IMG/VR virus record: IMGVR_UViG_3300043469_000509
Strand: one strand, 5' to 3'
Source of the DNA: an uncultured virus (IMG/VR IMGVR_UViG_3300043469_000509)
Taxonomy: Duplodnaviria; Heunggongvirae; Uroviricota; Caudoviricetes; Crassvirales
DNA length: 64,000 nt
Shown here: in pieces, positions 2,697 to 32,000 of the stretch
Position numbering within the stretch: the stretch's first letter is position 1
Layout of the letters: every line of letters starts with the position of its first letter
Translations under genes and position numbers: made by a program
The notes under the pieces: model-generated
Seen by the model: the letters and a program-made list of their open reading frames with translations, nothing else
What the model was told of the DNA's origin: nothing
Database searches by the model: none

Positions 2697-2700
2697 CTAA

Positions 2701-4416: not shown

Positions 4417-4420
4417 ATTT

Positions 4421-4842: not shown

Positions 4843-6579
4843 TTAATTCATTATTCTAGATCCATGATTATCAATAAGACTATAAGGCTCGTCAAACAAA
4901 GAGTTTTCAAATGTAACAAGATTTTGTTTTTTAGCAGCTTTAGTATCTAAAATATGCTTTACAAAATTATTATAAAACTCAATTAAAGCTACACCATTAT
5001 AATGCTCTTTAACAAAATTATACATTTTATCTGTAGCAAAACCTTTTGTAGACTTCTCTTTATTAATATTTGTTTCAATACTAAATGTAAGGTTTTTAAG
5101 AGTTTTACTTTTATTTAAAGATATATCAGTTCCAAATCTTTCAACTAGCTTCATATAATCTCTGTAAACAGGAATCATAGAATGTTTAGGTCTAATTTTA
5201 AAATTATTACCAATTTGATCATGAGTTTTAATTAAATACTCAGTATAGTCATTATCTGAAATATCAGATTCTCCTAAAATTATACCTCTTAAATGTACAT
5301 TATCTAAAGTTACTGAACCTACAGTAAATTGAGTATTATTAGGAAATATTAAATTACCTCTAGTTTCTTCCTGTATATTAACAAGTGTAAAATGCTTACA
5401 ATTTTCATTTGTTAATGTAATAGGTAAACTAAAATCAGCTACAATAGCATACTTACTATCTAAAGAAGCATTATCTTTAGATGTAACATTAATAACTTTA
5501 TCTAAAGGTCCTAATTTGAGCTTATTATTTTTATTGTATTTATTATTATAATACGCGCTCTTAGAAGAATTGTTATTTAAAGGTATAACTTTAGTTTCTA
5601 TTTTAGGTAGTTTTAATTCATACTCAAAGCTAGAATTAACTAACTTTCTAACTGAAGCTACTTGTAATTCAGTAATAACTTCAATTTCTTCTTCTACCTT
5701 AGTATCAACACTAGTCCTCTCTAGAAAATCATTATATAATCTCTCATCTTCACTTTCAAAGTTATGATTAGTTTGACGATCTAGTAAATTAAAACCTGTA
5801 TTAATACCACAAAAACTAGGACCTTCAGAGTAACCATTGTCATCATCATCATCGCCATCAAAAACATTTAAAAACTTATTAGTATTTAGATTAAAGTCTG
5901 AGCGTCTAGTAGAACTACCTCCTCTATCTTCAATATAACTTTTGTACCCACTATTAGAGAATAAATATCCTTGGTCATCTATAAAATTACCTAGAATAAT
6001 CATATCTCTATCAGGAAACATAAAACAAACTTTCTCTCCTTGTAATGAAGAGCTTAGTGTTGAATTAGTTGATATAAGTGCATGAGGAGCATTTTTTAGA
6101 GCTTGAATTTGTTTATCTGTTCTAAAATAACTTAATCCCCAATTATAAGTATCACTTAAATTCATATCAAAAGCTTCATACTCATTTCCAGAAAATATAC
6201 CGTTATGAGCAAATACACCTGTTTGAACATCGTCATCATCTACAGTTAACTCAGAAACTACTCCAAAGTTGTTTAGAGTACTCTTTTCTCCTAATATATA
6301 TGGATGTTGATTATATATGGTTTTAGAACCGTTTGTACCCCATCTTAAATGGACTAATACTTCATCTTCAGGTTGAATGTCTTGATTTTTTAACCATTTG
6401 TAAAAATCTTCTTTACTATGATTAAAGTGACCTTTATTCATTCTAAGTATATTGGAGGAGCTTTTTCTTACAGCTCCTCCTATACCATCTCTGTTAGTAA
6501 CAATACCAGATTCAATTGCACTAAGCATGAATTTATGGTCATAAGCTACTCCAGAGGGTTTCATCATTAATAAACACAT
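4843..6579 (-). CDS. class II (Ntn) glutamine amidotransferase with long C-terminal extension
   Basis: N-terminal Met-Cys nucleophile, NRDGIG, HLRWGT, HPY, FAHNG, SDT. Confidence 0.88.
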   Translation of the reverse strand: MCLLMMKPSGVAYDHKFMLSAIESGIVTNRDGIGGAVRKSSSNILRMNKGHFNHSKEDFYKWLKNQDIQPEDEVLVHLRWGTNGSKTIYNQHPYILGEKSTLNNFGVVSELTVDDDDVQTGVFAHNGIFSGNEYEAFDMNLSDTYNWGLSYFRTDKQIQALKNAPHALISTNSTLSSSLQGEKVCFMFPDRDMIILGNFIDDQGYLFSNSGYKSYIEDRGGSSTRRSDFNLNTNKFLNVFDGDDDDDNGYSEGPSFCGINTGFNLLDRQTNHNFESEDERLYNDFLERTSVDTKVEEEIEVITELQVASVRKLVNSSFEYELKLPKIETKVIPLNNNSSKSAYYNNKYNKNNKLKLGPLDKVINVTSKDNASLDSKYAIVADFSLPITLTNENCKHFTLVNIQEETRGNLIFPNNTQFTVGSVTLDNVHLRGIILGESDISDNDYTEYLIKTHDQIGNNFKIRPKHSMIPVYRDYMKLVERFGTDISLNKSKTLKNLTFSIETNINKEKSTKGFATDKMYNFVKEHYNGVALIEFYNNFVKHILDTKAAKKQNLVTFENSLFDEPYSLIDNHGSRIMN

Positions 6580-8393
6580 TATATTAGTTGTTTAAGTTTT
6601 AGATTATCATTAACTTCATTTTCATTTTTAATATCCTCTGTTTCTACATTTTCAAATAAAGCTGTTCTCATATCAATAAATTCATTAATAATTCTATATG
6701 ATTTAGGATATACCTTATTCATAATATTTTTTAATGTTAGAGGTAATACTTCACCTTTTAGAGTTACTGTATTACTCATTATATCACTATGTGAATTTTC
6801 AGCAAAGTTTACTAATGCCATACAAATCTTTAGCCAATTTTTGATTTTGGTAAAATTAGTACTAGCATTAAAACATCTAAATTCAATTGTATAACTTGGA
6901 GGATTAGTCATCCTTGTATTAAATAAAGCTGGAATAAAATTAGCCCAACAATATCTAATATTAGTTTGATCATATTGTACTTTAGCTCCTTTAGGGTGAT
7001 TCTTAGTTTTATTTAATTTATCACTTGGAGGAGAGTCAGCGGCTTTAGTAAAAAGTTCAGTATAGTAGTTATCTACTCTAATTTTCATATCCATAATGGT
7101 AGTACAACCATCAAAATTAAAATCTAAATTAGGTAATCTTCTACAATACTTATTTTCTCTTCTACTTTTAGGTAACATATTAAAGATATCATCTTCTATA
7201 TGTTTTAAGAGCTTATATAACATTACTAGATTAGTATTGTTAAAGTCAGCGGAACCTATATGAGTGTGAATACCACATGTGTGATTCACCTCACCTTTAT
7301 TAGCCAACTCATTACAAAGACTTTGTAAATGAGCCAATCCTTGATCACCTTTTAAGATACCTGTTATAATCTCAGGGCCGTATTTCTCACGTCTAGAGTT
7401 TGTAATACTACCATCTTTCTCAACCATGATATTAAAATCTTGCAGCAGCTTATTATTAAAAGAGCAGTCAGCCATCTCTATCTCTACACCGAAAGTATAC
7501 TTTAAGCCTTCAGTTATTAGATGAGTTGGAGAATCTAAACCCCATCGATAATTAAACTCATTATCATTTGGTTGAAATTTCTTTAGGTTTTTAAACTCAG
7601 GAAAATAATACCCACTTGGATATGCTCGATAACCATCACTCATAATTTGAGATTTTAAGATTATTTGTCCAGATCTAGGGCCTATAACAAACTTGTCAGG
7701 AAAGCTTTTTAGTAATTCCTCACCATTTAACAAATAAATTATTTCAGGGCTGTAAGCCTTACCTAGTATCTTATAGTTACAAGTTAATAAACTTTTTACT
7801 GACTCTTTATTAGCATACTTTGCAGTTGTTTGAAAATAAGGGGCATTATCAGTTAATTTAACTTCATAACAAGCTGCGCGATAGTGAGTAACATAAAGTT
7901 TGTCAGTAATAGCACATTTATAATGAGGTATACTCATTATCTCACTAGTAAGAACCCACGTACCATTATCCTCATTATTATCTAATAAGATTTTAGTACA
8001 CATAGATTTAACTACAAGTTTTTTCTTGACGATAATCATATCTTTTATATACCCTGAATTACCATACGAATCTACTATCAACTTATCTTCTGGAGATTCA
8101 TATATTCTAGGACTATTTTTATGTATGTATTTTTTAATATCTTTTTTGTAGTAAAATGATTTTATTTGACTAGTAGGTATTATAGATCTTCCACTTTTAG
8201 CATTAAGTGCTATTATATGATTTGAAGTTGTAATATCTTCTATCTCAAATTTTAAGGGTTTCCCAGTATCCTCATTTACAGCATTATCAAGTTCAATAAT
8301 ATCATTAACAAAATATTTTTCTTTACCTCTTTGTAGGTATTTAAATCCGTTAACTTCTTTTAAGCTACAAGGGATTCTTTCTTTGTTTTCCAT
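6579..8393 (-). CDS. putative amidoligase (COOH-NH2 ligase / Amidoligase_2-like)
   Basis: TFGVEIE, DGS, EIITGIL, CGIHTHIG, RRENKYC, TIEFR motifs in the C-terminal half. Confidence 0.85.
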   Translation of the reverse strand: MENKERIPCSLKEVNGFKYLQRGKEKYFVNDIIELDNAVNEDTGKPLKFEIEDITTSNHIIALNAKSGRSIIPTSQIKSFYYKKDIKKYIHKNSPRIYESPEDKLIVDSYGNSGYIKDMIIVKKKLVVKSMCTKILLDNNEDNGTWVLTSEIMSIPHYKCAITDKLYVTHYRAACYEVKLTDNAPYFQTTAKYANKESVKSLLTCNYKILGKAYSPEIIYLLNGEELLKSFPDKFVIGPRSGQIILKSQIMSDGYRAYPSGYYFPEFKNLKKFQPNDNEFNYRWGLDSPTHLITEGLKYTFGVEIEMADCSFNNKLLQDFNIMVEKDGSITNSRREKYGPEIITGILKGDQGLAHLQSLCNELANKGEVNHTCGIHTHIGSADFNNTNLVMLYKLLKHIEDDIFNMLPKSRRENKYCRRLPNLDFNFDGCTTIMDMKIRVDNYYTELFTKAADSPPSDKLNKTKNHPKGAKVQYDQTNIRYCWANFIPALFNTRMTNPPSYTIEFRCFNASTNFTKIKNWLKICMALVNFAENSHSDIMSNTVTLKGEVLPLTLKNIMNKVYPKSYRIINEFIDMRTALFENVETEDIKNENEVNDNLKLKQLI

Positions 8394-9937
8394 AATTCAA
8401 CAGTTTTAGCATAAATTTCACATATTTTTTCTTTCATTGAATCAAATTCACCTTGTAAAGCGCGCATTGTTCCTAACTCTATTTCACCTTCATTTTCTTC
8501 TAATAACCCATATAAGTCATCAATAGAAATCATATTATCTTCACATAGATCAAATATTTCAGAAACTGTTTTATTTTCATCAGTAGCTTTAATAATATCA
8601 TCTACTTCTATGTTTTTAAGTAAACTGTTTTCTACCATAAATTGAGCTAAATAGGATTCTTCTACTTTACTATAAGGTTCTGAGTCAATACTAGTATTAT
8701 GACTAGTTGTATTTTCAGGTAATAAAATAATATGTTTAGAATTATCTAGTACATTAGTAAGAGAACGCTCACTAATAATACAAGCTCTAGCATATTCTTT
8801 CTTTATTTCATAATCTAACCCATCTACTAAACTAGTAGCACAAATACAAAGAGCTCCATTAATAGTACTTTCTCTTGGTTTTATATTTACTACATCACCC
8901 TTGAAAAATACAAATTCAGTAGGACTAGCTGTTTTATGAATATCTGTCATTATAACAACTTTAGTATTACTTGTTAACGGATTAATAGGCTCAACTTTTT
9001 GAACATAATAAAACTGTGCAAATGGTATTGTAATAGATACACCAGCAGTATTCTCCACAACTAGTTTTGATTCATGAGCCTTAATTTCTCTTAATAAAAA
9101 CCAATCATTGATTTTATAAGGAATAGGATCACTTCCTAAACTTGCTCTATCTGTTTGTATCCAGCTATTTAAATACTTAGCCCAATAACCAGGAGCAGTG
9201 CCGCTACCAGCATACAAATTAGTACTGTAATTTGAGTGGTTAACAACTTTGGTTTTAACGGGTCTACTGGGTATAGTTACCTCATTAAGTATTCCCCCTT
9301 CGAATATAGTATATAATGTATTTGTACTAAACTCTTCAATGTCTATACACTCAATAGCTTCTAGACTTTCTTTTAAGCTACTAATATACATACCTTCTTC
9401 ACTCATACCATAAAACAAAGGTCTTTGATTATTCAATCTAAAAGCTAGTAAAAAACTATTTTCTTGACCCTTTTTTAATTTAATATTTTTATCAGCTACC
9501 AATAAACTAGCTGTACCATCAATCTCACTAAATATTCTAGCTCCAAAATTACTATCCATAATTTTATGCAGTAACTCTGTATCAGTACCTGGATTAGTAG
9601 TATTATACTTTGCAGCTAATGCTGTTGTATTATCTAAAGTACCATTATGAGCTAATACACAATTATCACCTGCAAAAGGATGAGCTGAAGATACAAAAGT
9701 TTTATAAGCTGAACCAGCTCTAACATGCCCTATTAAAGAGCAATCAGGTACTATCTTAGTAAAATCTTTAGTTAGAAATTTAGCAGCTACATCTACTGAT
9801 TTAACTACACCTGAAGAAGGAGTCCAAAAACCAGTAGCATCTTTACCACGATCTTGATTATACATAAATAAGATTTTAACCTTATTAACATCAAATTTTT
9901 GCCCCTTATGACCACTAAAACCTATTAGTCCACACAT
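8360..9937 (-). CDS. second class II glutamine amidotransferase
   Basis: MCGLIG, RGKDATG, GHVRAG, HPF, AHNGTL, TDTE, RPL. Confidence 0.9.
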   Translation of the reverse strand: MCGLIGFSGHKGQKFDVNKVKILFMYNQDRGKDATGFWTPSSGVVKSVDVAAKFLTKDFTKIVPDCSLIGHVRAGSAYKTFVSSAHPFAGDNCVLAHNGTLDNTTALAAKYNTTNPGTDTELLHKIMDSNFGARIFSEIDGTASLLVADKNIKLKKGQENSFLLAFRLNNQRPLFYGMSEEGMYISSLKESLEAIECIDIEEFSTNTLYTIFEGGILNEVTIPSRPVKTKVVNHSNYSTNLYAGSGTAPGYWAKYLNSWIQTDRASLGSDPIPYKINDWFLLREIKAHESKLVVENTAGVSITIPFAQFYYVQKVEPINPLTSNTKVVIMTDIHKTASPTEFVFFKGDVVNIKPRESTINGALCICATSLVDGLDYEIKKEYARACIISERSLTNVLDNSKHIILLPENTTSHNTSIDSEPYSKVEESYLAQFMVENSLLKNIEVDDIIKATDENKTVSEIFDLCEDNMISIDDLYGLLEENEGEIELGTMRALQGEFDSMKEKICEIYAKTVELWKTKKESLVA

Positions 9938-21876: not shown

Positions 21877-22130
21877 ATTGTTTCTTTATAAGTTTCGTTG
21901 TAGTATTGTTCTGCATTTGCTTTTTGATCTTCATCATTCCACCCATTATTAGAATAAGCATCTATTATCTGCTCCTTTTCCATTGCTAACAGTTCGGTGC
22001 TGATGTCATCATTAACACTAACTAATGCTTTTCGATACTCTACTTGAAAAGGGTTTGATGTAAATTCAAGTTTATCAATTATTTCTTGATTTCGATCAAA
22101 TAAAATCTGCATTGCTGTTTGTTTGCTCAT
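21873..22130 (-). CDS. small hypothetical phage protein
   Basis: KQTA...AMEKEQIIDAY...AEQYYNETY module. Confidence 0.6.
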   Translation of the reverse strand: MSKQTAMQILFDRNQEIIDKLEFTSNPFQVEYRKALVSVNDDISTELLAMEKEQIIDAYSNNGWNDEDQKANAEQYYNETYKETI

Positions 22131-22131
22131 A

Positions 22132-23025
22132 TTATTTCTTTTTAAATTGTTCCAACATTTTAATTGTAAAGTCTTTTATTCTTGTATATGGAATTTTAAC
22201 TTCATCATTTATAGTTCTTTGAATCAGCATACCTTTTTCACAAGAAAGTTTAATTATTTCTTTTACTTCTTCCTCACTATACATTCTTTCTTGTTGCCAT
22301 TTAGAAAATAAAATATGACTTTCTACAATTGCTTCTTTACTTGCATAAATGTCGGGATATGTTTTATCTCCACTAATTTGTTTAGAAAATCTATTGTTTA
22401 CAAATATTTCAGCAGCTTCTTCAAGTGTTTCTTTTTTATCAAATACAGAAGTTGGTAAAAAACCATTGACTAATTCAATTTCTTGTTTAGGTTCTAATGG
22501 TTTAAACTCTTCCACAGTTCCTCCATTTTTAAAGTGTTGAATAAAATGTGCTTTGCCTTCAATAGATTTTTTTAAACCTTCTTTTATTTTTGAATAGTCT
22601 TGTTTAGGTTCTTCTTGTGGAATGATGATTTTGTAACATTCTTGATAAGGGAAATCTTCTGTTTTATTGTATTCTTTATTCATAATAACAACCTCAACAA
22701 ACTCACAACTTGGATTCGTAACAAACCATTCTAAAAAATCATCGTCAATAGCTTGTACACCATCTAAATCTTGGTCTGTTGTTAGGATTATTTTTTTATA
22801 ATCACCTTTAGGTTCTTCACCTATGTGTTTATGTATTGGTCTATCTAATGAACCAAATTCTGCTATATAATAGTCACCTTCTTTAATTTCTTCCATATCA
22901 GAAGTGATGTAGATGTTTTGATAATCTTTAGGTGTGATTAATTGCCCCATTTCTAAGTGTAGATTACCTGCCAAATAAAATATCCTACTTGGTTTTTCTG
23001 TTGGTAATATGTGTATGTTTTTCAT
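22132..23025 (-). CDS. mosaic hypothetical protein
   Basis: Modules KIILTTDQDL, YKIIIPQEEPKQ, ETLEEAAE, WQQERMYSEEEV. Confidence 0.65.
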   Translation of the reverse strand: MKNIHILPTEKPSRIFYLAGNLHLEMGQLITPKDYQNIYITSDMEEIKEGDYYIAEFGSLDRPIHKHIGEEPKGDYKKIILTTDQDLDGVQAIDDDFLEWFVTNPSCEFVEVVIMNKEYNKTEDFPYQECYKIIIPQEEPKQDYSKIKEGLKKSIEGKAHFIQHFKNGGTVEEFKPLEPKQEIELVNGFLPTSVFDKKETLEEAAEIFVNNRFSKQISGDKTYPDIYASKEAIVESHILFSKWQQERMYSEEEVKEIIKLSCEKGMLIQRTINDEVKIPYTRIKDFTIKMLEQFKKK

Positions 23026-23404
23026 ATTATTTTATGTTTTCTAAATTCCGAACTGCACGCACATAGGATGCGTTGTCCTTACTGCTGTAGTAGGCATCCT
23101 CAGAGTTGAAAGAGAAGTACCACGCGAAGCCTTCGTTGCCGTACTCCGTACTACTCCAATAGCCTTTACTATTATTATTTATTAATTTATTTTTATAAAT
23201 CATAAAGAATTCTTCAATAGTTGGTAATCTCCAACCATTTCCTAATTTCTCAACTGCTTTAATAGCTTCATCCCAAGTCATTTTTCCTAAATCATCTGGG
23301 TGTAATTCAAAGTGATAATGTTTATTAACTATTTGAGATTGTTTAATTACAGGTGTATATTCTACACCGTCTATTATTATGTTTTTCATATTATTTTATG
23401 TTTT
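23014..23404. repeat. perfect 27-bp direct repeat (23014-23040 and 23378-23404) bracketing the DUF1566-like gene
   Basis: TATGTTTTTCATATTATTTTATGTTTT occurs at both positions; a 17-bp partial copy is near 23633-23649. Confidence 0.9.
23027..23389 (-). CDS. DUF1566/Lcl-like C-type-lectin-fold protein with DGR-type variable region
   Basis: MTWDEA...GWRLPTIEE...YWSSTE...AW...F......K....YVRAVR; the 3' third is GC-rich with NNC codons. Confidence 0.82.
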   Translation of the reverse strand: MKNIIIDGVEYTPVIKQSQIVNKHYHFELHPDDLGKMTWDEAIKAVEKLGNGWRLPTIEEFFMIYKNKLINNNSKGYWSSTEYGNEGFAWYFSFNSEDAYYSSKDNASYVRAVRNLENIK

Positions 23405-23639
23405 TTAATGGATAAGCGTTTAGTATTGATTTTTTATTTTCTTCAGTTGTACATACAAACCCATTAGAATCTCTAAAATATGCTTTTCTACTAGCAGCTT
23501 TTAATGCTTCTGTTACGTGTAGTTTAGCAAATTCTCTTAATGCTACAATATCTCTATATCTACAAGAACAACCTTCTGATTTAGAATGATCGTGACCGTT
23601 ATATTTTTTTAAGAACTCTTCAGCTGTTGGTATTTTCAT
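23391..23639 (-). CDS. small hypothetical protein, paralog of 23641..23859
   Basis: PTAEE...EFAKLHV...AYPL.NIK. Confidence 0.65.
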   Translation of the reverse strand: MKIPTAEEFLKKYNGHDHSKSEGCSCRYRDIVALREFAKLHVTEALKAASRKAYFRDSNGFVCTTEENKKSILNAYPLKNIK

Positions 23640-23640
23640 A

Positions 23641-23859
23641 TTATTTTATATTAGTTAGTGGATAAGCTTCATCATAACCTTCTTCAAGTTGTCCGTATTT
23701 ATCTATATAAATTTCTTGAGCTTTTTTACACGCTTCTACATGTAGTTTAGCAAATTCAATCATTAATTCAACTAAATGTTTAACATCATCAGAAAATAAA
23801 TCTAAATTAGGATTAATTTTTGTATCTTTATATAACTCTTCAGCGGTTGGTACATTCAT
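23641..23859 (-). CDS. small hypothetical protein, paralog of 23391..23639
   Basis: PTAEE...EFAKLHV...AYPL.NIK. Confidence 0.65.
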   Translation of the reverse strand: MNVPTAEELYKDTKINPNLDLFSDDVKHLVELMIEFAKLHVEACKKAQEIYIDKYGQLEEGYDEAYPLTNIK

Positions 23860-23860
23860 C

Positions 23861-24286
23861 TTATTTGTTTTTTACTATTTCTATAAGTTTAGATAAACAA
23901 GCTTGTTCTGCTTCTTCATAAGTGTTGTAATATTTTTCAAAGTAACCATCTTCTTTTTTACCAATAATAGTAATCCATTCTTCATCTATTGAATAAGTAA
24001 AACCATTGGGTATTAAATTTGTTGGTTCTCCATGAGTATAGTTCCATACATTATGATATAAGTTATACTTCTCTCTAAACCATCTAAATGCTTGTTGGTA
24101 AAGTGGTACACCTAACACACCATCTAATTTAAGTTCTGTATTAGTATAACCTCCTTTTATAATAGCAAATCCTCTTTGTGAAAATAATTGTAAACCGCAA
24201 ATAGTTTGCATAGCTAAACATATTTCATCAAAACCTAATTCTTTCAAAGCCAATGCTTGTTCGTAAGGTATAAATTCTTTATTCAT
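23861..24286 (-). CDS. hypothetical phage protein
   Basis: EFIPYEQALALKELGFDE...PLYQQAFRWFREKY...TYEEAE module. Confidence 0.65.
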   Translation of the reverse strand: MNKEFIPYEQALALKELGFDEICLAMQTICGLQLFSQRGFAIIKGGYTNTELKLDGVLGVPLYQQAFRWFREKYNLYHNVWNYTHGEPTNLIPNGFTYSIDEEWITIIGKKEDGYFEKYYNTYEEAEQACLSKLIEIVKNK

Positions 24287-24288
24287 TG

Positions 24289-24492
24289 TTATTTAAGTAT
24301 TTCGATTTTAGTTATAATAGTTTGTCTGATTGGATAATAAGCAACCACTACAGACCCTACATCTGCATTTTTGTTATAGAACTCATATAGTCCAGCTGAG
24401 CTGTAATTCATACCACTGCAATCAATAATTGTTTGATAAGTGGAGTCTGAGTCGTTATAGTATCCAAGTACTGTTATGTGATATCTTTTCAT
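24289..24492 (-). CDS. hypothetical protein
   Basis: ORF in operon context. Confidence 0.5.
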   Translation of the reverse strand: MKRYHITVLGYYNDSDSTYQTIIDCSGMNYSSAGLYEFYNKNADVGSVVVAYYPIRQTIITKIEILK

Positions 24493-24512
24493 ATTATTTG
24501 TTTTTTAGTTAG

Positions 24513-24599
24513 TGGTCAGGACAGGATTCGAACCTGTATGAATAAGCGTACCACGTTAGCAGTTATTCTCTTTAGCGTCTACCATTCCGCCACCTGACC
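24513..24599 (-). tRNA. tRNA-like gene with aberrant anticodon arm (identity undetermined; possibly pseudo-tRNA)
   Basis: Acceptor GGTCAGG/CCTGACC plus discriminator A; D arm GCG-GAATGGTAGA-CGC; T arm ACAGG-TTCGAAT-CCTGT. The middle is a GAATAA/TTATTC stem with a 17-nt loop. Confidence 0.7.
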
Positions 24600-24604
24600 A
24601 TATT

Positions 24605-24793
24605 TTAATTTGTTATTATATATACTTTATTATTACTAATAAAATAAAAGAAACTTTTATAGCTAGGTATATCACCTACTATTTTAAGCATTACCTTTGC
24701 TTCTAGGGTATTATCTTGTATTAACTGATGTATATTAGTACCTTGTAAAGTACTATTACTATACCACGTCATAGGCTCGTATTTACTAGTCAT
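24605..24793 (-). CDS. hypothetical protein
   Basis: 62 aa ORF. Confidence 0.4.
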   Translation of the reverse strand: MTSKYEPMTWYSNSTLQGTNIHQLIQDNTLEAKVMLKIVGDIPSYKSFFYFISNNKVYIITN

Positions 24794-24822
24794 ATTACCT
24801 CATATTAATTGCTATTAAATTT

Positions 24823-24866
24823 AAAAATAGTATAGGAGAGAAATTCCCAGAACTCTCCTAATACTA
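24823..24866 (-). terminator. putative intrinsic terminator
   Basis: TAGGAGAG...CTCTCCTA stem followed by TACTATTTTT on the minus strand, downstream of 24915..25547. Confidence 0.5.
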
Positions 24867-24914
24867 TTGATACTACTACTTGTTAATAGGTGTAATAGAC
24901 CCTTTAATCTTTAG

Positions 24915-25547
24915 TTATGCTAAAGCATCAACTTCAGCTTGTAACTTACTAATTACTTCAGCATTTTTAGCAGCAGCTTCAGCTTTAGTACTAACAGTTG
25001 CAGCTTTAGCTACTCTAATATCAATATCACCGAAGATATTAATACCAACTTCATTGCTACCTTTGTGGTTACTAAAGTCATTAACATAAAATCCTTGTGA
25101 GTATTGTACTGGTTGTACAATTTCTCCAGCTGAATTTCTAATAACTAAAGACTCTGCAAATTGAGCTGCAGTTCTTTGACCTGCTGATATTGAATACTTT
25201 TGCTCGTCTGTTAAGACATCAAGTAGTTTATTAGAATACTTTTTGCAAATACGTGCATTTGGTTTAGTACCTAATAGTTGTGCTACTTGTTCAGCTGTTG
25301 TACCTTCTGGTACATTAATCCAGCCTACTCGTGTTGATTCATATGATTCACCAAGTTCTAATTTGAAATCTTCGATTGCAAATAAACTATCTTGCATACT
25401 ATTATCTACTCTCTTACTAGGGTAAGTTGTTGTAACAGTTTGTCTGATTTGTGCTTGGTAAATACCTTCTTTGTACTCTGATGCTGTAACTTTATCTACT
25501 GATAATACTGCAAATTCTTTTGTGATTCCGTTTAATGATTGTTTCAT
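24915..25547 (-). CDS. hypothetical early protein
   Basis: 210 aa ORF with A-rich leader and downstream hairpin. Confidence 0.7.
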   Translation of the reverse strand: MKQSLNGITKEFAVLSVDKVTASEYKEGIYQAQIRQTVTTTYPSKRVDNSMQDSLFAIEDFKLELGESYESTRVGWINVPEGTTAEQVAQLLGTKPNARICKKYSNKLLDVLTDEQKYSISAGQRTAAQFAESLVIRNSAGEIVQPVQYSQGFYVNDFSNHKGSNEVGINIFGDIDIRVAKAATVSTKAEAAAKNAEVISKLQAEVDALA

Positions 25548-25629
25548 GTTTGTTTTGTTTTAAATTGTAATTAATTATTTATTTGTTTGTTTTAAGCTAG
25601 TATTTTAAATGTTCTCTCAACTTATGTGT

Positions 25630-26004
25630 CTAGCCATTATTTTTATGTTGGAGAATTTCTTGTACAGCTTGTATGTGTACTTTTCTAAACTTTGGAAATA
25701 TAGTAGCTAATAAACTATCAGCTAATTCATTTCTTTGGTTTATTTCAGTTTTAAGAGCTTGTATCCATTCATTAGCTGAATGACCATTAAATCTTAATTC
25801 TGAAGGTTTTAGGCTACTTAAAATAGATCTTAAATGGTTAAATTCAAGATTCTTTAGTTTAACAGAGCCATATTTATTCATCCATAACCAATCAGATGAT
25901 TGATTATACTTTCTACCAATACCTTTAACTATAGTATTAGAGTTTAACTTCTCAATCCTCTCTCTCGGAGTTTGAGTCTTCTGCAATAAAATTGTTGAGT
26001 TCAT
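25630..26004 (-). CDS. hypothetical protein
   Basis: 124 aa ORF. Confidence 0.55.
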   Translation of the reverse strand: MNSTILLQKTQTPRERIEKLNSNTIVKGIGRKYNQSSDWLWMNKYGSVKLKNLEFNHLRSILSSLKPSELRFNGHSANEWIQALKTEINQRNELADSLLATIFPKFRKVHIQAVQEILQHKNNG

Positions 26005-26224
26005 TTTGTTTTAAATTTTCTATATTAATAAATTCTCTTTCTTTAATTCCTCTATTAATCTTGTCTATTTCATAAGACCTTGTTTTTTGTATTTTTATGT
26101 TACCTGTTGTAACACCTATAGGTAAGTATAGAACTTTATCTACACTTACACCTTGTTGTTTTAACTCCTCCCACGTATTACATTTCTTTGTGAGAGGAGT
26201 ATCAATATCTTTAGGCGCTTTCAT
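25952..26224 (-). CDS. hypothetical protein
   Basis: 90 aa ORF coupled to upstream stop. Confidence 0.55.
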   Translation of the reverse strand: MKAPKDIDTPLTKKCNTWEELKQQGVSVDKVLYLPIGVTTGNIKIQKTRSYEIDKINRGIKEREFINIENLKQNELNNFIAEDSNSERED

Positions 26225-26478
26225 TAAGCAGCTTGTTTATGTAGCTTCTTAACTTTCTTTAGTTCTACTCTTTCAGCATCTGTTAGTTTTTCTCTAACAA
26301 TTACTCTTCTAACAGGAGGCCTTAAATCTTTGGCTACCATTTCAAAGTCATTAGAGCAATCTACAGCATCTGCTTGTAGATATTTATCACGCTCTTCTCT
26401 GATAAGTTTTTTAGGCATATCACTGTTTCTAGAAGCTAAATCATTAACTTTAGAAAGATTTTTGTTTTTTAAGTTCAT
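26224..26478 (-). CDS. basic hypothetical protein
   Basis: 84 aa ORF. Confidence 0.55.
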   Translation of the reverse strand: MNLKNKNLSKVNDLASRNSDMPKKLIREERDKYLQADAVDCSNDFEMVAKDLRPPVRRVIVREKLTDAERVELKKVKKLHKQAA

Positions 26479-26532
26479 TTTATTTGTTTTTTAGGGGTTA
26501 ATAACCATTCTAAGTATTCTTCTTCACTTATA

Positions 26533-26757
26533 TTATCTACCATCTTCTATTATATTATAAGTTTTATAAGCTATTCTTTTGTTCTTATAAGTAATTTTAT
26601 ACGTATAAGATTTAACTTTGTAAGTTGTAATTGATTCACAATAAGCTACATTATACTCTTTTTCTGATATTAATTGATTGCTTTCAATAATAAAATAATC
26701 TTTAGTATATTGCAATATGCAAATAATAATTAGTAAACTGATTAGTGCTATAGCCAT
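26533..26757 (-). CDS. small protein with N-terminal TM helix
   Basis: ORF in operon context. Confidence 0.45.
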   Translation of the reverse strand: MAIALISLLIIICILQYTKDYFIIESNQLISEKEYNVAYCESITTYKVKSYTYKITYKNKRIAYKTYNIIEDGR

Positions 26758-26951
26758 TGTATAAATTGATTTAGTGATTGAATAATTGATCTTGTGCTTA
26801 ATAATATTACTATAATACTTAGAAAAATACTGATTTTATTTATTACAATTATATCATAATCATAAAATGGATCACATTTTTTAATATTATTAATAAGTTC
26901 AGGTAATTCATAACATACCCAAATTAGAATAAGTATATCTATAAGTATCAT
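26748..26951 (-). CDS. small membrane protein
   Basis: Two hydrophobic segments. Confidence 0.45.
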   Translation of the reverse strand: MILIDILILIWVCYELPELINNIKKCDPFYDYDIIVINKISIFLSIIVILLSTRSIIQSLNQFIQWL

Positions 26952-27133
26952 TGGTTTTCTTTAGCTTTATAGATTATTACTGGAGTCTTAACATTAGGTA
27001 ATGGATATTTAATCCATAAGACTTTTAATTGAGCTACAAGAGCTTTATTCTCTAATGTAATAGTATCTCTATAACTAGCTGTACTATCACAATTACTGGT
27101 GAATAACGAGGTAATTAATAATAATTTAATCAT
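26948..27133 (-). CDS. small hypothetical protein, possibly secreted or lipoprotein
   Basis: Signal-like N-terminus followed by Cys. Confidence 0.45.
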   Translation of the reverse strand: MIKLLLITSLFTSNCDSTASYRDTITLENKALVAQLKVLWIKYPLPNVKTPVIIYKAKENQ

Positions 27134-27232
27134 TTGTTTGTTTTTTAGTGAATAATTAGTTTAAAATATAAGCATCATCTCAACTCCGCTAGTTGTTAAG
27201 GGACTCAATACCCAAAGATGATGCCTTTTAAT

Positions 27233-27412
27233 TTAAGATATTACTATTAAATCTAGTTTAATTGCAATAGCTCTAAATAACATTGTCATTTCTAATAATA
27301 ATCCTAATAATAGAAGTACAAAAGAATGTCTGTCTTCATCGTAATATGCATAAAAAGCAGCATATGTTGTTGCTACTATTAAAGCTACTAGTATCAATAT
27401 TATTACTACCAT
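27233..27412 (-). CDS. small membrane protein (59 aa, not in ORF track)
   Basis: MVVIILILVALIVATTYAAFYAYYDEDRHSFVLLLLGLLLE...; the ATG overlaps the end of the upstream gene. Confidence 0.45.
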   Translation of the reverse strand: MVVIILILVALIVATTYAAFYAYYDEDRHSFVLLLLGLLLEMTMLFRAIAIKLDLIVIS

Positions 27413-27618
27413 AAGATATCTTGTAAATGTTTTTCATAATATTCATGTAAAGAAGCTATAACTAACCACCAATGTACTACAATAAAATATGTTACAAACC
27501 AATTTGAATTACTTATTATACTCTTATAATCAGTAAAGAATAAGCCAAATGCTGATAGTGCTAGATAATAAGCAGCAGTCAGTATAAGATAGAGAAAAAT
27601 GTAAATTATTACTTTCAT
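27406..27618 (-). CDS. small two-TM membrane protein
   Basis: Hydrophobic ORF preceded by ACAAATTCCT. Confidence 0.55.
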   Translation of the reverse strand: MKVIIYIFLYLILTAAYYLALSAFGLFFTDYKSIISNSNWFVTYFIVVHWWLVIASLHEYYEKHLQDILW

Positions 27619-27653
27619 AGGAATTTGTTTTTAATTGTTTTTGTTTATAATTT

Positions 27654-27884
27654 TTAGTAAGTATTTATTTCAGTAGCATCGCATTCATCATATTCATCAG
27701 AATGGTAATTATTATTAAAATCATTGGCCATATCACCATTGAGTTTAAATTCAGTTCTCTTTTTATGTTTGTTACTATTGTTCACAATCATTTTAAGAGT
27801 ATTACGAAGGTGATTAATATCCATATCATCTATAGATATTAATACACCATTACGTTGTTTCCAGTAAACTATTTTATTGCTCAT
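27654..27884 (-). CDS. hypothetical phage protein
   Basis: W..RNG..I.IDDM...HL.N.LKM motif. Confidence 0.65.
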   Translation of the reverse strand: MSNKIVYWKQRNGVLISIDDMDINHLRNTLKMIVNNSNKHKKRTEFKLNGDMANDFNNNYHSDEYDECDATEINTY

Positions 27885-28089
27885 TTGATTGATCTTCTAA
27901 AATAAGTTTTTGTGTAACTAAATCTTCTTCCATTTGTTCATCAGTATATTTAGGGTATCGAGACAATAATTCTTTAGTGGCTCCTTCAATAGTAGTATGC
28001 CAATTTGTTTTAGCATGTACTAACCCTGTAAAAGATTCTTCTGTTTGGTATCTATAAATATTCATTTTGTGTGTGTAATTAATTAACAT
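27874..28089 (-). CDS. hypothetical protein
   Basis: ORF in operon context. Confidence 0.5.
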   Translation of the reverse strand: MLINYTHKMNIYRYQTEESFTGLVHAKTNWHTTIEGATKELLSRYPKYTDEQMEEDLVTQKLILEDQSNEQ

Positions 28090-28601
28090 TCATTAAATTG
28101 ATTTTCTAAATCATTAAGCTTACATTCGTTTTGTAAATCTTCATAATATTGCACCATTAAAGTAGAATGAGAATTACAAAGAATTTTACAATCATCTAAA
28201 TTATATGGATAAACTAATTTATCAAAATCTTCTAAATAATAAACTGTTCCACCACTAAGTACAGTATTTACATTTGGGTTATTTGTAAATAAATTAGCAA
28301 ATCCATTATCTTCACAATATTCATTTGCACAATCTAAAGCATTTTTTAGATTATTATATGAAATACAACTATGTGAACCATAACTATGAATTACAACTTT
28401 ATAGATATAACTATCAGGTATTATATCTCCAATGTGTAATTTAATTTGCTCTTTTTCCCAATTATTTAAAGGTAAAGATAAATCTAATTCAACACTTATT
28501 ACTGATTTTGTTGTTTCATTATAGGCTGAAACAAATACTCGATTATCTATAAATAGATAAGAATTGCCATTTGGATGTTGTACTATCATTTTGTTTTGCA
28601 T
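28083..28601 (-). CDS. hypothetical protein
   Basis: 172 aa ORF. Confidence 0.6.
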   Translation of the reverse strand: MQNKMIVQHPNGNSYLFIDNRVFVSAYNETTKSVISVELDLSLPLNNWEKEQIKLHIGDIIPDSYIYKVVIHSYGSHSCISYNNLKNALDCANEYCEDNGFANLFTNNPNVNTVLSGGTVYYLEDFDKLVYPYNLDDCKILCNSHSTLMVQYYEDLQNECKLNDLENQFNEC

Positions 28602-28649
28602 ATTCTTACAACTTGCCAGTTGCTTTTTAAATTGTTAGTAAATAAATGT

Positions 28650-29190
28650 TTTTATCATTCTTGTTAGGTTTCTTACAGCCTCTACACCCTTTCGAAGGTA
28701 GCTAAGTGGATTTAATGTATTATTCCAAGGTTCACTCTAATGATTTGTCTGGTTTAATGTAAGTCTTACATCAATTGTTGCCTATAACCAGATAAAATAG
28801 GGCTTTTTGTAATTTTGTGTTTTCATAAAGCAGTCTTAATTTATTACACGCAAGCTACTAGCGTGAGCAATAAGAACCTTCTAGTAAAGAATACAGTTGT
28901 CTAATCTGTCATATTACCCGTTAGTGATAACTAGAATTTAATTTTACACCTAAAACTTTACTGTCATACAAGTTCCCAAATTTTTTTCAGTTTGGTCTGT
29001 ATTGTATTAATGCCATTAGTCAGTAAAGAATTAGGCGCTTAATAATTAAAATTGAGCATTGCAACCTTCGGATTAGCTAATGGGTTTCAGTGCATTATAC
29101 TACATATTGACCCTCTTATAGGTTGTTATCAGTGTAGTCAAGTCTTGCTCAAATTTAATAATAAACTCCCAACTGTTAAGTCAGGAGTTT
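28650..29190 (-). ncRNA. candidate structured non-coding region (series of hairpins)
   Basis: About 590 bp without an ORF of 60 aa or more. Stems include AAACTCCTGAC/GTTGGGAGTTT, GCGCCTAA..CTTTACTG/CAGTAAAG..TTAGGTGT, TTATTGC..CACGC/GCGTGTAATAA and TCTGGTT/AACCAGA. G-U pairs mostly favour the minus strand. Confidence 0.5.
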
Positions 29191-29195
29191 AAGGT

Positions 29196-29624
29196 TTACA
29201 AAGAGAAGTGTGAAGCACTAATCCATTTTGTTGTTCTATCAAATTCTCCTTTTCTATTAGGAACTTGATATTCAACAAGAACTTCTTCATCTCTATACTG
29301 ATTAGTTTCTAATACAGTAACTTCATTAACATTACCATGGCAAGAATTATTGTCTTCAATTGATTTAGGAGTCCAATAACCATAAACACTAAAAGGTTTA
29401 ACTTTATAAGTTTCACCAGCATTAACATTTATTTCTTTTTGAAAACCATTCATTGCAGACACAATTTTACCTAGCATTGTTTTATCATGAGACATACTTC
29501 TACCAATAATTTGTTCTACAACAGTATCAGCATTAGCTGAATCTTCTTTAAACATAGAACGTAATTGTGAGGCAACAGCATCAACTTCAATTGTAATTTG
29601 GATTTGTTCGTTAAATTTCTTCAT
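29196..29624 (-). CDS. hypothetical early protein
   Basis: 142 aa ORF preceded by ACAAATTCCTA. Confidence 0.7.
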   Translation of the reverse strand: MKKFNEQIQITIEVDAVASQLRSMFKEDSANADTVVEQIIGRSMSHDKTMLGKIVSAMNGFQKEINVNAGETYKVKPFSVYGYWTPKSIEDNNSCHGNVNEVTVLETNQYRDEEVLVEYQVPNRKGEFDRTTKWISASHFSL

Positions 29625-29639
29625 TAGGAATTTGTATTG

Positions 29640-29968
29640 TGCTTTTACTAAACTATCTTATGATAGAACCTAGAAGCAATTGGTTTATTGAGGACTTGCA
29701 ATCTTTGGCAGATTACTTTCTAGCTTGAATTTGGGCTAGACTTACGCAGTTAGATAAGAAACTGTATTCACACACTTTACCAGATGTGTTAAAAGAAACT
29801 TGCAGTTCCTACAGTTAATCGAATTCTATATCATAGATATATTATTCCATAGTTCAGTATTCCACTACTGAGCAAGTACCAATGGGATGGAATTTGTATC
29901 CATTGAGATAATAGTTTTAAACAAGCTTTTTAGCTTTAAACTACAACTAGTTCTCACACTAATTGTTA
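29640..29968 (-). ncRNA. candidate hairpin-array leader RNA downstream of the ribozyme
   Basis: About eight consecutive hairpins, e.g. ACAATTAGT/ACTAGTTGT, TCAGTA/TACTGA, TCTAGC/GCTAGA, CTATC/GATAG. Confidence 0.5.
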
Positions 29969-29972
29969 AAGT

Positions 29973-30125
29973 TCCTGATTTTTAAGTCTGCACTAACTCA
30001 AGATTACACTCTTCTAAAGTGTTAGATATTATGCTTATTCCAATTAGGATTAGAGATTAGAAGTCTCTGCATAAAATCTTGTAGTAGCCCCACAGGATTA
30101 TCAAGGTTTATCAACCTTAAAGAAA
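29973..30125 (-). ncRNA. hatchet self-cleaving ribozyme
   Basis: P1 UUAAGGUU/AACCUUGA, linker UAA, P2 UCCUG/CAGGA, conserved UGGGGCU, P4 CAAGAUU/AAUCUUG, conserved UAGUGCAGAC and UUAAAAAU. Order and spacing match the hatchet consensus as I recall it (UGGGGCU...UAGUGCAGACGUUAAAAC). Confidence 0.85.
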
Positions 30126-30177
30126 CATAGTAGGACAGAGCTCACGAAGAGATGTCCTTTAAACTATGCACAACATT

Positions 30178-30390
30178 TTAGAATATGCTAGGAATAGCAA
30201 TCCATTGTAAAGTATTCTGTCTATATTGTTTATCAACAATAACATATTGTATTGTATCACCTCTTAATAACTTGTTAAAGTTTTTAGTAGTAATAAAATA
30301 CGTTTCGTGTTTGTTGTTAAAAGAGAAACATACAGAAGCTTTGTTAATACTAATCAATTTGATTTGAGTGATAGATAATGTGTTAAGCAT
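30178..30390 (-). CDS. hypothetical early protein
   Basis: 70 aa ORF preceded by ACAAATTCCT. Confidence 0.55.
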   Translation of the reverse strand: MLNTLSITQIKLISINKASVCFSFNNKHETYFITTKNFNKLLRGDTIQYVIVDKQYRQNTLQWIAIPSIF

Positions 30391-30477
30391 AGGAATTTGT
30401 ATTTGTTTGTTTATAAATTGTTAATAATAAGCTATTTAATTAGATGAGAACAAAAAAGGAGACACTTGTAGATAGAC

Positions 30478-30499
30478 AAAAAGGGGTGGTGAGCCCCTT
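30478..30499 (-). terminator. putative intrinsic terminator
   Basis: AAGGGG-CTCACCA-CCCCTT plus T run on the minus strand, just after the stop of 30504..30797. Confidence 0.6.
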
Positions 30500-30503
30500 A
30501 TTA

Positions 30504-30797
30504 CTACCTAACAGTTGCAATTTCCCACTTGCCTGTAGGGTTTTCAGCTGTTATTAAGGTTGCTTTAGCCCCTGATATGATAAGTATCAGTCCTTGTAAT
30601 GCCGCAGGATTTGCACCTTGCCCTAAATAAATGCGAGTATTTGGTAACTGAAAGTACCAACGCTTTTTATCATCTTGTATCATAGCCCCTAGTAAAGGCA
30701 ATGCAATACTACCAAAAAGCTCTTCTTTAATGTTACTAACAATACCCCTAGTTTGTAATGCTTGCTGTAATTGTTCTAATGTTGCAAAATTTGTCAT
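30504..30797 (-). CDS. first gene of the leftward arm, hypothetical
   Basis: 97 aa ORF followed by a terminator. Confidence 0.6.
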   Translation of the reverse strand: MTNFATLEQLQQALQTRGIVSNIKEELFGSIALPLLGAMIQDDKKRWYFQLPNTRIYLGQGANPAALQGLILIISGAKATLITAENPTGKWEIATVR

Positions 30798-30968
30798 TGT
30801 AATTTAGTTTAATATTATATAGCCTACTCTTTAGTGCGGGGTAGGTTTGCCGCAATATATCAGGTGGGTGTGCTTAGCTAGAGGAGCTACTCGTTCACAT
30901 ACCCTCACTAAATTTTTCTAAAAAATTTTAAAAATTTTATTTTTTTATATGATTTAACATTATTTGGC

Positions 30969-30996
30969 TTGACAAGTATAATTTAATTGTTATATT
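30969..30996 (+). promoter_or_regulatory. putative rightward promoter
   Basis: TTGACA-N16-TATATT with an AT-rich upstream tract, placed just before the structured region at 31004. Confidence 0.45.
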
Positions 30997-31003
30997 GTAT
31001 ATC

Positions 31004-31312
31004 GTAACACAGCCAGTAAGATGACAGCTTACGAGTTAGTATCGGGGAATACTCTTAAAGAGTAGGAACCTAGAAGTTGGGTAGTAAGAGTAGACAATTG
31101 ATAATCAATTAGTTGAAATGAGGTTTCTCCAATAGTTACACAATAGTTAATTTAAAGTAAGGTGTGTTACTCAAGGGTAAAAAATAACAAGATCTTGGAT
31201 TTATTCAAGGCTCCCTAATGGTCATGATTGAGTAAGTAGGCTAAAAACGGACACCTGAAATAAAATTTTAACTAGAATATAGCGAAGTGATTTAGTTCAC
31301 TAGGGGATTCTA
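31004..31312 (+). ncRNA. candidate ~310-nt structured RNA or leader at the start of the rightward arm
   Basis: GTAAC/GTTAC and TATCGGGGAA/TTCTCCAATA close a multibranch domain with TACTCT/AGAGTA and GTAAG/CTTAC hairpins. A second domain is closed by TAGTTAA/TTAACTA and GGTGT/ACACC. No ORF. Confidence 0.5.
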
Positions 31313-31366
31313 TTCTCTAATATGAACAAAAGCTATATTAAATAGAAAGAATTAAACAATTTAGGG

Positions 31367-31750
31367 ATGATAGAGATAAAGATTGATAATTCTAAATCTA
31401 AGGTTATAGAGCAATACTATACTTTAGTTAACCCTTTACTAGGGAAAAATAAACTAGGCCCAGTACAATTGAAGGTACTCGCAAAGATGGCTCTAGTATA
31501 CAATAATTACATACATCTTGGAGAAGACGTAGCTAATATGCTACTGTTTAGGAAGGAAGCAAGTGCTCAAATTAGAGATGCTGTATCTAAGGATCTAGGT
31601 ACAAGCTTTAATTCTGGTGCTTACTCTCATATCTTATTTGGTTTAAGGGGAAGAGGTTTTATTACTAAGACTAAGATTCTTTACCTTCCTCCTATTAAGG
31701 ATAAGAAGATTGAGATTAATATTAGACTTACTATTGTAGAAGATGAGTAA
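31367..31750 (+). CDS. hypothetical protein, possibly winged-helix
   Basis: 127 aa ORF, first of the rightward arm. Confidence 0.6.
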   Translation: MIEIKIDNSKSKVIEQYYTLVNPLLGKNKLGPVQLKVLAKMALVYNNYIHLGEDVANMLLFRKEASAQIRDAVSKDLGTSFNSGAYSHILFGLRGRGFITKTKILYLPPIKDKKIEINIRLTIVEDE

Positions 31751-32000
31751 TAGCAAGTTTATAGATCCAATACTTAGAGAGGTAGCTAAGGAACAAGATT
31801 TACCTCTTTATGTAATACAAGAAATATATGAATCTCCTTTTAAGTTTATGAGGGAAGATACTAAGATAGTCGGTAATTGGAAGACTTATCTTATTCAAGG
31901 GTTAGGTAAGTTTAGACCTGTTGTACCCATACTAAGAAAGATTAAGAACGGGGAAGAAATTAATAACTTTGTTAAAAAGAGTAAAGATGAATCAAAATAA
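31743..32000 (+). CDS. HU/IHF-like DNA-binding protein
   Basis: I..EVAKE..L...I.EIY..F...IQGLGKF pattern. Confidence 0.6.
   Translation: MSNSKFIDPILREVAKEQDLPLYVIQEIYESPFKFMREDTKIVGNWKTYLIQGLGKFRPVVPILRKIKNGEEINNFVKKSKDESK

Follow-up and report, generated by a model that had tools for sequence, protein, structure and literature searches.

The stretch of DNA analysed here, called the window throughout, is 64,000 nucleotides (64 kb) long. From about position 31367 onwards, its plus-strand arm encodes a TerL, a portal and a major capsid protein that match crAss-like families. A search with TerL found 161 phage records, all below 60% identity, and the best relatives are human-gut crAss-like phages (about 35%), together with Flavobacterium and Cellulophaga phages. 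On the basis of these protein comparisons, the carrier is a distant crAss-like phage. Among public sequencing runs, 18 DNA runs contain the stretch, with shares of 0.21-0.97; they are metagenomes of lake water. A hatchet self-cleaving ribozyme is located some 1 kb into the opposite, non-structural arm, among small ORFs that have no PHROG match in the surroundings of the ribozyme. It is held in a gene-free gap of 553 nt (29625-30177) between two small ORFs, 29196-29624 (ORF142) and 30178-30390 (ORF70). Three such gene-free gaps are present, each 550-600 nt long, and the one with the ribozyme is in the middle. It contains no ORF of at least 40 aa, and the MFE z-score of 29625-30160 is -4.13 in comparison to shuffles.

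The two gaps that flank the ribozyme region on the minus strand, 28602-29195 (594 nt) and 30798-31366 (569 nt), have fold z-scores of -2.6 and -2.0, respectively, and are without Rfam match. Parts of them are 97-98% identical in G001, and they could hold further unclassified RNAs. G001 is the nearest record to the window, being 98% identical in adjoining DNA, with the pieces reordered and without the hatchet. Compared with 28000-32000, it (L001-L009) is a mosaic in which a leader, some 60 nt in length, recurs 4 times; a DNA search gave no match to ORF 28083-28601 in it. Near-identical DNA for 28000-32000 was not found in GenBank phages. Elsewhere on the minus strand, adjoining ORFs at 6579-9937 have matches in the PHROG families of amidoligase and glutamine amidotransferase, a pair that may belong to a nucleotide or DNA modification pathway.

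As in the window, structured RNAs occur in the gene-poor stretches of other crAss-like phages. A short BLAST match led to the RefSeq crAss-like phages cr53_1 (NC_055889) and cr115_1 (NC_055898), which carry 3 and 2 hatchets, and to the GenBank phages MT835839 and MT839950. With Rfam, the four phage stretches give 7 hatchets of 69.6-103.5 bits, as well as RAGATH-6, -7 and -14 and tRNA, all of them sitting in unannotated gaps of the same arm. The RAGATH RNA of cr53_1 is RAGATH-14; at 1695-4652 of this genome (L010), three hatchets and this RNA are found within 3 kb, unannotated in the record. According to a passing remark in a preprint (10.64898/2026.03.07.710320), hatchets are for the most part restricted to the genomes of Crassvirales. 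Since hatchets lie in the gene-poor arm stretches of RefSeq crAss-like phages, a hatchet in a crAss-like phage is, taken alone, expected. In the gut crAss-like phages, a tRNA-Leu lies a few hundred nt behind the hatchets. The window has a tRNA-like gene of 87 nt at 24513-24599 on the minus strand, the only non-Hatchet Rfam match in the 64 kb (tRNA, 42.3 bits). It has a 25-nt stretch in place of the anticodon and variable arms, and ARAGORN reports nothing with default settings and a doubtful tRNA-Ser(gct) with the intron option.

Infernal cmscan with Rfam 15 over the whole 64-kb window returns one match to the Hatchet family (RF02678), at 29973-30124 on the minus strand. It reaches 79.6 bits (E 8.5e-15), the Rfam gathering cut-off for this family being 51 bits, and covers model positions 1-133 of 133 without truncation. 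A re-scan of 27500-32000 with permissive filters gives the identical match at E 6e-16; no other Rfam family reaches E 0.5 there, and the sole further row is mir-87 at E 0.55, which is chance level. Riboswitch families are not matched in 27500-32000, HDV-family matches are absent both from the 64 kb and from 27500-32000, and no ribozyme family other than Hatchet is found in the 64 kb. The original prediction had recognized a hatchet from its hallmark elements, and the Infernal comparison with the Rfam model is clearly positive. The elements that it listed, GUUUCU, P1, P2, UGGGGCU, UAGUGCAGAC and the A run, are all found in this order. It had placed the ribozyme at 29973-30125, which is the right locus and extends one base beyond the Rfam match. 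The elements of the core are the following, with crystal numbering according to Zheng 2019:

29973-30124, minus strand: hatchet ribozyme, full Rfam match (RF02678, 79.6 bits)
30097-30093 / 29977-29973, minus strand: P2, UCCUG/CAGGA, 5 bp (Rfam alignment)
30092-30086, minus strand: UGGGGCU strand (Rfam alignment, sequence)
30092-30089, minus strand: conserved U28, G29, G30 and G31 (crystal numbering)
30088-30086, minus strand: 5' strand of P3, starting with G32, followed by C and U (Rfam alignment)
29973-29998, minus strand: 3' core with the 3' strand of P3, the A run and the 3' strand of P2 (Rfam alignment)
29995-29986, minus strand: hallmark core strand UAGUGCAGAC (sequence)
29991-29988, minus strand: G63, C64, A65 and G66 (crystal numbering)
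29983-29979, minus strand: A run (Rfam alignment)

P0, a P1 of 6 bp, P2, P3 and P4 are all present. In the Rfam alignment, the 5-bp P2 closes the ribozyme core, and P3 comprises G31-C64 (G30089-C29990) and a G32-U62 wobble (G30088-U29992). The highly conserved core of hatchets consists of C20, A21 and A22, U28-G31, G63, C64, A65 and G66, and A73-A75 (Zheng 2019, PMC6561176). Of these 14 bases, 13 are present; the exception is C20, which is a U (30100) in the window. For comparison, a scan for members of the same subfamily gave 28 loci, which together with the window amount to 23 distinct ribozymes. The three P3 pairs that were checked are invariant in these 23 relatives and thus speak neither for nor against pairing. 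A chance resemblance to a hatchet would have a single point in its favour, the AT-rich composition of the match (33% G+C). Set against an E value of 8.5e-15 across the full model, and against compensatory changes in P1 and P4 among homologues in related phages, this explanation has a negligible probability. The element at 29973-30124 is a genuine member of the hatchet class, Rfam RF02678, by sequence as well as by predicted structure.

At its 5' end, the ribozyme has the hairpin and the helix that frame the cleavage site:

30125-30169, minus strand: P0 hairpin, GCAUAGU/ACUAUGU, enclosing GGACA/UGUCC and CUC/GAG (MFE fold)
30120-30115 / 30106-30101, minus strand: P1, UUAAGG/CCUUGA, 6 bp, with loop UUGAUAAA (Rfam alignment, fold)
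30120-30121, minus strand: predicted scissile bond between U30121 (position -1) and U30120 (position +1, the first base of P1) (Rfam alignment onto crystal numbering)

P0 folds with -16.7 kcal/mol (MFE fold of 30175-30121) and ends 4 nt ahead of the cut, the spacer being UUCU. A hairpin of this kind, whose sequence is not conserved, accompanies about 90% of hatchets (Li 2015, PMC4604424); it is dispensable in vitro. The relatives L139 and L141 have different sequences in the P0 region that are, as judged by eye, also capable of forming a hairpin. The length of P1 in hatchets is either 3 or 6 bp (PMC4604424). Across the 23 relatives, 91% of the P1 cells are paired and three of the six pairs have changes on both sides. 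In hatchets, pairing in P1 begins with U1, and the cut is made directly on its 5' side (PMC4604424; PMC6561176); the partner of U1 is A19 in crystal numbering (PMC6561176). A cut at about 30121, at the 5' base of P1, had been predicted, and this agrees with the cleavage site of the literature, which falls here between U30121 and U30120. The base at -1 is a U in the window and a C in the studied constructs, and a C(-1)U mutant was shown to cleave like the wild type (PMC6561176).

The most elaborate part of the ribozyme is the extension of P4:

30081-30075 / 30005-29999, minus strand: P4, CAAGAUU/AAUCUUG, 7 bp, enclosing a domain of 69 nt (30074-30006) (fold)
30029-30074, minus strand: stem UUAUGC/GCAUAA (30074-30069 / 30034-30029) around hairpins A and B (fold)
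30052-30068, minus strand: hairpin A, AGAGA/UCUCU, with loop CUUCUAA at 30063-30057 (fold)
30039-30049, minus strand: hairpin B, UCCuaauuGGA, an extra small hairpin (fold)
30006-30022, minus strand: hairpin C, ACACU/AGUGU, with loop UUAGAAG at 30017-30011 (fold)

P4 is paired in 100% of the cells across the 23 relatives, with changes on both sides in four of the seven pairs, and the helix is needed for activity, as indicated by mutants M3 and M4 (Li 2015, PMC4604424). The insert between the P4 strands had been described as 69 nt long and as a UUAUGC/GCAUAA stem around two hairpins followed by ACACU/AGUGU; its length is exactly this, and the same structure is obtained when the insert is folded alone. 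Its size is unexceptional, a long P4 insert being the rule for the class. About 47 positions of the P4 loop are unpaired in the Rfam Hatchet consensus, 11 other hatchet matches are 107-149 nt long as compared with 152 in the window, and in the Ht-1 construct 44 natural nt were swapped for UUCG (PMC4604424). Hairpin B lies in 17 nt that L139, L141 and L143 lack, which makes this hairpin a window-specific elaboration in comparison to the nearest kin. The insert is swapped among strains: at 29998-30082, contigs of runs X2 and X21 have 69 other letters for 83 nt of the P4 domain, while the flanks of the insert are conserved.

A feature overlooked in the original prediction is that loop A (CUUCUAA) is the exact reverse complement of loop C (UUAGAAG), so that the two could form a kissing pair of 7 bp. 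Loop complementarity is widespread in the subfamily: among the 23 distinct ribozymes, it extends over at least 7 letters in 20, over 6 letters in one and over 5 letters in two. The matches of at least 7 letters use 8 different words, and the 6-letter match is a ninth. One of the 5-letter cases is L183, which also has a CAU instead of a CAA linker and thus a changed A22. In a broader sample, at least 7 complementary loop letters are found in 13 of 29 ribozymes as compared with 142 of 2900 mononucleotide shuffles, and matches between the loops of different ribozymes are rare outside close kin. In a MAFFT alignment of 11 subfamily rows, 86.8% of the cells of the loop-loop helix are paired. Shuffles give 65.4 +/- 3.4%, with none of 500 reaching the observed value, and sliding the partners gives 40-53%. 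Five of the seven loop-loop pairs have changes on both sides in these 11 rows. This count leaves out 12 rows with the word CTGCAAA, the loop of which MAFFT put one column off; if all 23 rows are taken with the misplaced ones, the helix is 63.8% paired, and all 12 of these rows keep a 7-letter loop match. The stems of the two hairpins covary separately over the 23 relatives, with changes on both sides in five of five pairs for A and three of five for C. Covariation thus supports, at the level of the alignments, P1, P4, both hairpins and the kissing pair.

The same complementarity could, in principle, serve pairing in trans, that is, dimerization, or an alternative fold rather than kissing in cis. 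Loops that are complementary can pair in trans no less readily than in cis, and a hatchet has been crystallized as a domain-swapped dimer; this crystal dimer, however, is dispensable for activity (Zheng 2019, PMC6561176). Moreover, the independent covariation of the stems (5/5 pairs for A, 3/5 for C) and the fact that the complementarity in the window ends exactly at the loop borders, where A-A and U-U adjoin, are what is expected of two closed hairpins, and pairing in trans or in an alternative fold seems improbable. The insert is most likely a three-way-junction domain that is shut by a 7-bp kissing interaction in cis. Kissing or loop-loop pairing in hatchets is not described in the consulted parts of the literature checked, which includes PMC8495972 and PMC6154101. 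The discovery paper, Weinberg et al. 2015, lies outside the scope of this search, and features of P4 may be shown in its figures or supplements.

Directly 3' of the ribozyme lies a second structured region:

29685-29972, minus strand: non-coding hairpin array, conserved in G002, L141 and L143 (3' half also in L187)
29716-29698, minus strand: invariant hairpin GUAAUCUgccaaAGAUUGC of the array (conservation)

Ribozyme and array, the latter of about 290 nt, together show 72% identity over 446 nt to G002/L139. The same unit is present in L141 and L143, and the 3' half of the array recurs in L187. RNAalifold predicts 37 pairs in the array, 15 of them with a compensatory change, in a sample of four sequences only; thin as this sample is, the conservation of the pairs is suggestive of a structured RNA. 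RAGATH and the other Rfam families give no match to the array at E values up to 1. As to the searches by which relatives were collected, the pattern GAGTAGTGGAATACT gave 31 loci, of which the G002 contig is the only related one, a hairpin pattern scan gave 5 loci, two of them in unrelated G+C-rich contigs, and a scan of a single metagenome added nothing except duplicates of G002 and L141.

The surroundings of this unit are not conserved. The P0 region upstream and everything beyond 29685 differ between the relatives, and G002 has other ORFs on both flanks. Homologues of ORF142 and ORF70 were not found in the fetched flanks of the contigs that carry the unit; they occur in G001 only, at 76% and 87% identity. 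Ribozyme and array thus travel, as far as these comparisons go, as a cassette and not as the leader of a particular gene. This cassette is dispensable, since the closest relative, G001, does without it.

The original prediction had the released RNA continue through the hairpins into ORF 29196-29624, and it is tempting to regard the ribozyme as the 5' leader of the message of this ORF, with the P4 domain as a regulatory sensor that tunes the gene. The order on the minus strand (ribozyme, hairpin array, ORF142) would fit, and a simple scan detects no terminator-like site between ribozyme and ORF142. The combination is not conserved, however: ORF142 homologues are missing from the fetched flanks of contigs with ribozyme and array, and G001 has ORF142 at 76% identity without a hatchet. 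The claimed continuation is therefore not upheld, since the unit recurs beside different genes and the ribozyme is not tied to this ORF. A role as sensor is further at variance with the free variation of the P4 domain, with its 8 kissing words of at least 7 letters, and with zero matches to riboswitch families in 27500-32000; because the sequence of the domain is so variable, a structural clamp fits better than a ligand pocket. Altogether, a leader or sensor function for ORF142 is rather unlikely. Signals for transcription do not link the ribozyme to the ORFs either: a sigma-70 scan is uninformative (20 sites as compared with 14.6 expected), no promoter or terminator assignment of this kind was found, and among direct repeats in 22000-31400 there is no shared promoter or leader bearing on the ribozyme. 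A terminator-like hairpin followed by a T run is present at 30481-30499 on the minus strand, directly after ORF 30504-30797, and ORF 30178-30390 and the ribozyme may, given this hairpin, start a separate transcript.

Membership in the class does not settle whether this particular copy is catalytically competent, since one of the conserved core bases has changed:

30098-30100, minus strand: P1-P2 linker UAA in place of C20-A21-A22, U30100 being position 20 (Rfam alignment)

This deviation from the conserved CAA had been overlooked in the original prediction. C20 is among the bases that are conserved in at least 97% of hatchets, and its partner, in a trans pair next to the scissile phosphate, is G30 (Zheng 2019, PMC6561176). 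It is kept in all 22 other distinct ribozymes of the subfamily, U20 being unique among the 23. For a sample that is unbiased in this respect, viral contigs were scanned with a core pattern that leaves base 20 free. By eye, this general pattern gave mostly chance matches, so a filter was applied that demands the linker, the P2 complement and the A run. The filtered sample comprises 28 distinct ribozymes, 26 with C20 and two with U20; the latter are the window and L177, which came from a later scan targeted at U, so that C20 is found in 26 of the 26 other hatchets sampled regardless of position 20. The U20-targeted scan of viral DNA gave three loci, of which one (L177, 67 bits) is a true hatchet, and among 11 loci from the corresponding scan of species genomes there is none.

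The ribozyme may then be a hatchet by descent that is catalytically dead or crippled, the C20U change disturbing the trans pair with G30 by the scissile phosphate, and that is either kept merely as a folded RNA or decaying. The uniqueness of U20 among 23 subfamily ribozymes and its absence from 26 of 26 unbiased hatchets fit such a loss, as do the mutants. The nearest one to the single change in the window, C20U/G30A, is slower and has a lower yield, and C20G/G30C is inactive (PMC6561176). The closest relative, G001, lost or never had the cassette, which points in the same direction. On the other hand, all other conserved bases, the helices and the kissing pair are intact, which would not be expected after long decay; G30, the carrier of the proposed catalytic groups, is likewise unaltered; and a DNA contig from another lake sample, about 97.5% alike, retains the whole element without a gap. 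In addition, U20 also occurs in L177, and since this hatchet is unrelated the variant must have arisen at least twice. Loss of activity is thus possible but rather doubtful, and the hatchet of the window is, as judged from its sequence, quite probably competent.

Sequencing runs give a further view of the locus. Contigs of two DNA runs and of two RNA runs, the latter from two lake metatranscriptome studies, were placed on 28500-31400. The DNA runs cover this region broadly, and an X3 DNA contig, about 97.5% alike, is gap-free over 29854-30653, straight through the ribozyme. The RNA contigs are short (165-377 nt, 90-95% alike) and lie on about 29740-30121; the sole RNA match outside this interval is one of 32 nt at 28834-28865. 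The cassette is thus present in RNA libraries, just as it is conserved in DNA with changing neighbours. The cleavage-side ends of four of four RNA contigs are at or before the cut, with none extending upstream: a 326-nt contig of run X21 stops within 1 nt of the predicted site (30121), two contigs end at 30105 and 30110, and one begins inside P1 of an L143-like variant. As these data are assembled contigs of relatives that are 90-95% alike and not raw reads, they cannot prove RNA ends, and RNA contigs bounded by the predicted cut are a weak hint of cleavage in nature. Likewise, no absence of RNA can be concluded from the missing contigs on the flanking ORFs, for the relatives may have other neighbours. 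The variant itself, L143:1507-1638 on the minus strand (equal to contig L205), is a hatchet with a hairpin of about 20 nt in the P1 loop (Rfam, 60.6 bits), and an RNA contig of run X21 apparently matches it.

The structure of hatchets has been solved and their mechanism studied; to our knowledge, their biological role is not known. The best explanation for the element described here, with a probability of roughly 0.6, seems to be that of an end-forming punctuation element that forms a cassette with the array and is held by a kissing clamp in P4. Upon transcription of the arm, the RNA would fold into P1-P4, and the 2'-OH of U30121 would attack its 3' phosphate in the presence of Mg2+, so that the U20 copy would cut between U30121 and U30120. 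If ORF 30178-30390 is transcribed together with the ribozyme, the upstream message would be left with the P0 hairpin and a 3' end carrying a 2',3'-cyclic phosphate. The downstream RNA would begin with a 5'-OH, enclosed by the compact fold of the hatchet, and would continue with the conserved hairpins over about 290 nt. The ribozyme could in this way separate neighbouring RNAs of a long phage transcript and provide both products with protected ends. The kissing pair may hold together the P4 strands, which are 69 nt apart, and stiffen the 5' end of the product. Such a role would be in line with the suggestion of a 2019 review that self-cleaving ribozymes of bacteria may serve in the processing of polycistronic transcripts and may be of importance in phages (PMC6765202).

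A cassette and a short RNA unit bounded by the cut point to the formation of the end of a stable non-coding RNA and not to the control of one gene. More tentatively, it could be imagined that the hatchet serves as the inherent 5' end of a discrete and stable phage RNA, non-coding and about 380-440 nt long (ribozyme and hairpin array), which accumulates in lake communities, and that the kissing domain in P4 is an undescribed tertiary module on which natural hatchets depend for folding or for survival in cells, in analogy to the loop-loop contact of natural hammerheads. If true, this would be the first concrete biological handle on the purpose of hatchets. The part of P4 that has been deleted from every in vitro construct carries the covarying kissing pair in many natural members, and minimal constructs may therefore miss a physiologically relevant element. 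By means of the natural C20U variant, it can readily be tested how strictly the C20-G30 pair is required.

In comparison to the hatchet class as a whole (Li 2015, PMC4604424; Zheng 2019, PMC6561176), the window shares the architecture P0-P1-linker-P2-L2-P3-L3-P4. It also shares a P1 of 6 bp, core strands with UGGG, GCAG and AAA, a cleavage site, here predicted, at the very 5' end and a long P4 insert. It differs in having a U instead of a C at position 20, a loop L1 of 8 nt (UUGAUAAA) instead of the 7 nt of the consensus, and ACUU in L2 where the class has an ACGU palindrome, which is not needed for activity (PMC6561176). Its P4 insert forms a junction domain, and the covarying kissing pair of this domain is absent from the structure line of Rfam Hatchet. 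In cr53_1, cr115_1, MT835839 and MT839950, members of the same class lie in long gene-free gaps opposite the structural genes. These four phages come from the gut and have several hatchets in each region, whereas the lake phage of the window has one in 64 kb. A tRNA of type-II size is close to the hatchets in cr53_1, cr115_1 and MT835839. RAGATH RNAs are structured RNAs near ribozyme-associated genes, and cr53_1, MT835839 and MT839950 carry them; like the array of the window, they are orphan structured RNAs that adjoin self-cleaving ribozymes in phage DNA, with the difference that the 290-nt array itself matches none of them at E values up to 1, nor any other Rfam family.

Two other classes of self-cleaving ribozymes show partial likeness. 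HDV-like ribozymes are likewise cut at their extreme 5' end, so that the 3' product, with its 5'-OH, retains the complete ribozyme, a comparison already drawn for hatchets by Zheng 2019 (PMC6561176); fold and catalytic residues are, however, unrelated. Loop-loop tertiary contacts of natural hammerheads are mentioned by Li 2015 (PMC4604424). Like the kissing pair in P4, these contacts are peripheral, variable in sequence and removed from minimal in vitro constructs. The hammerhead contact joins two different core stems and speeds up cleavage at low Mg2+, whereas in the window both kissing loops belong to the extension of one and the same stem.
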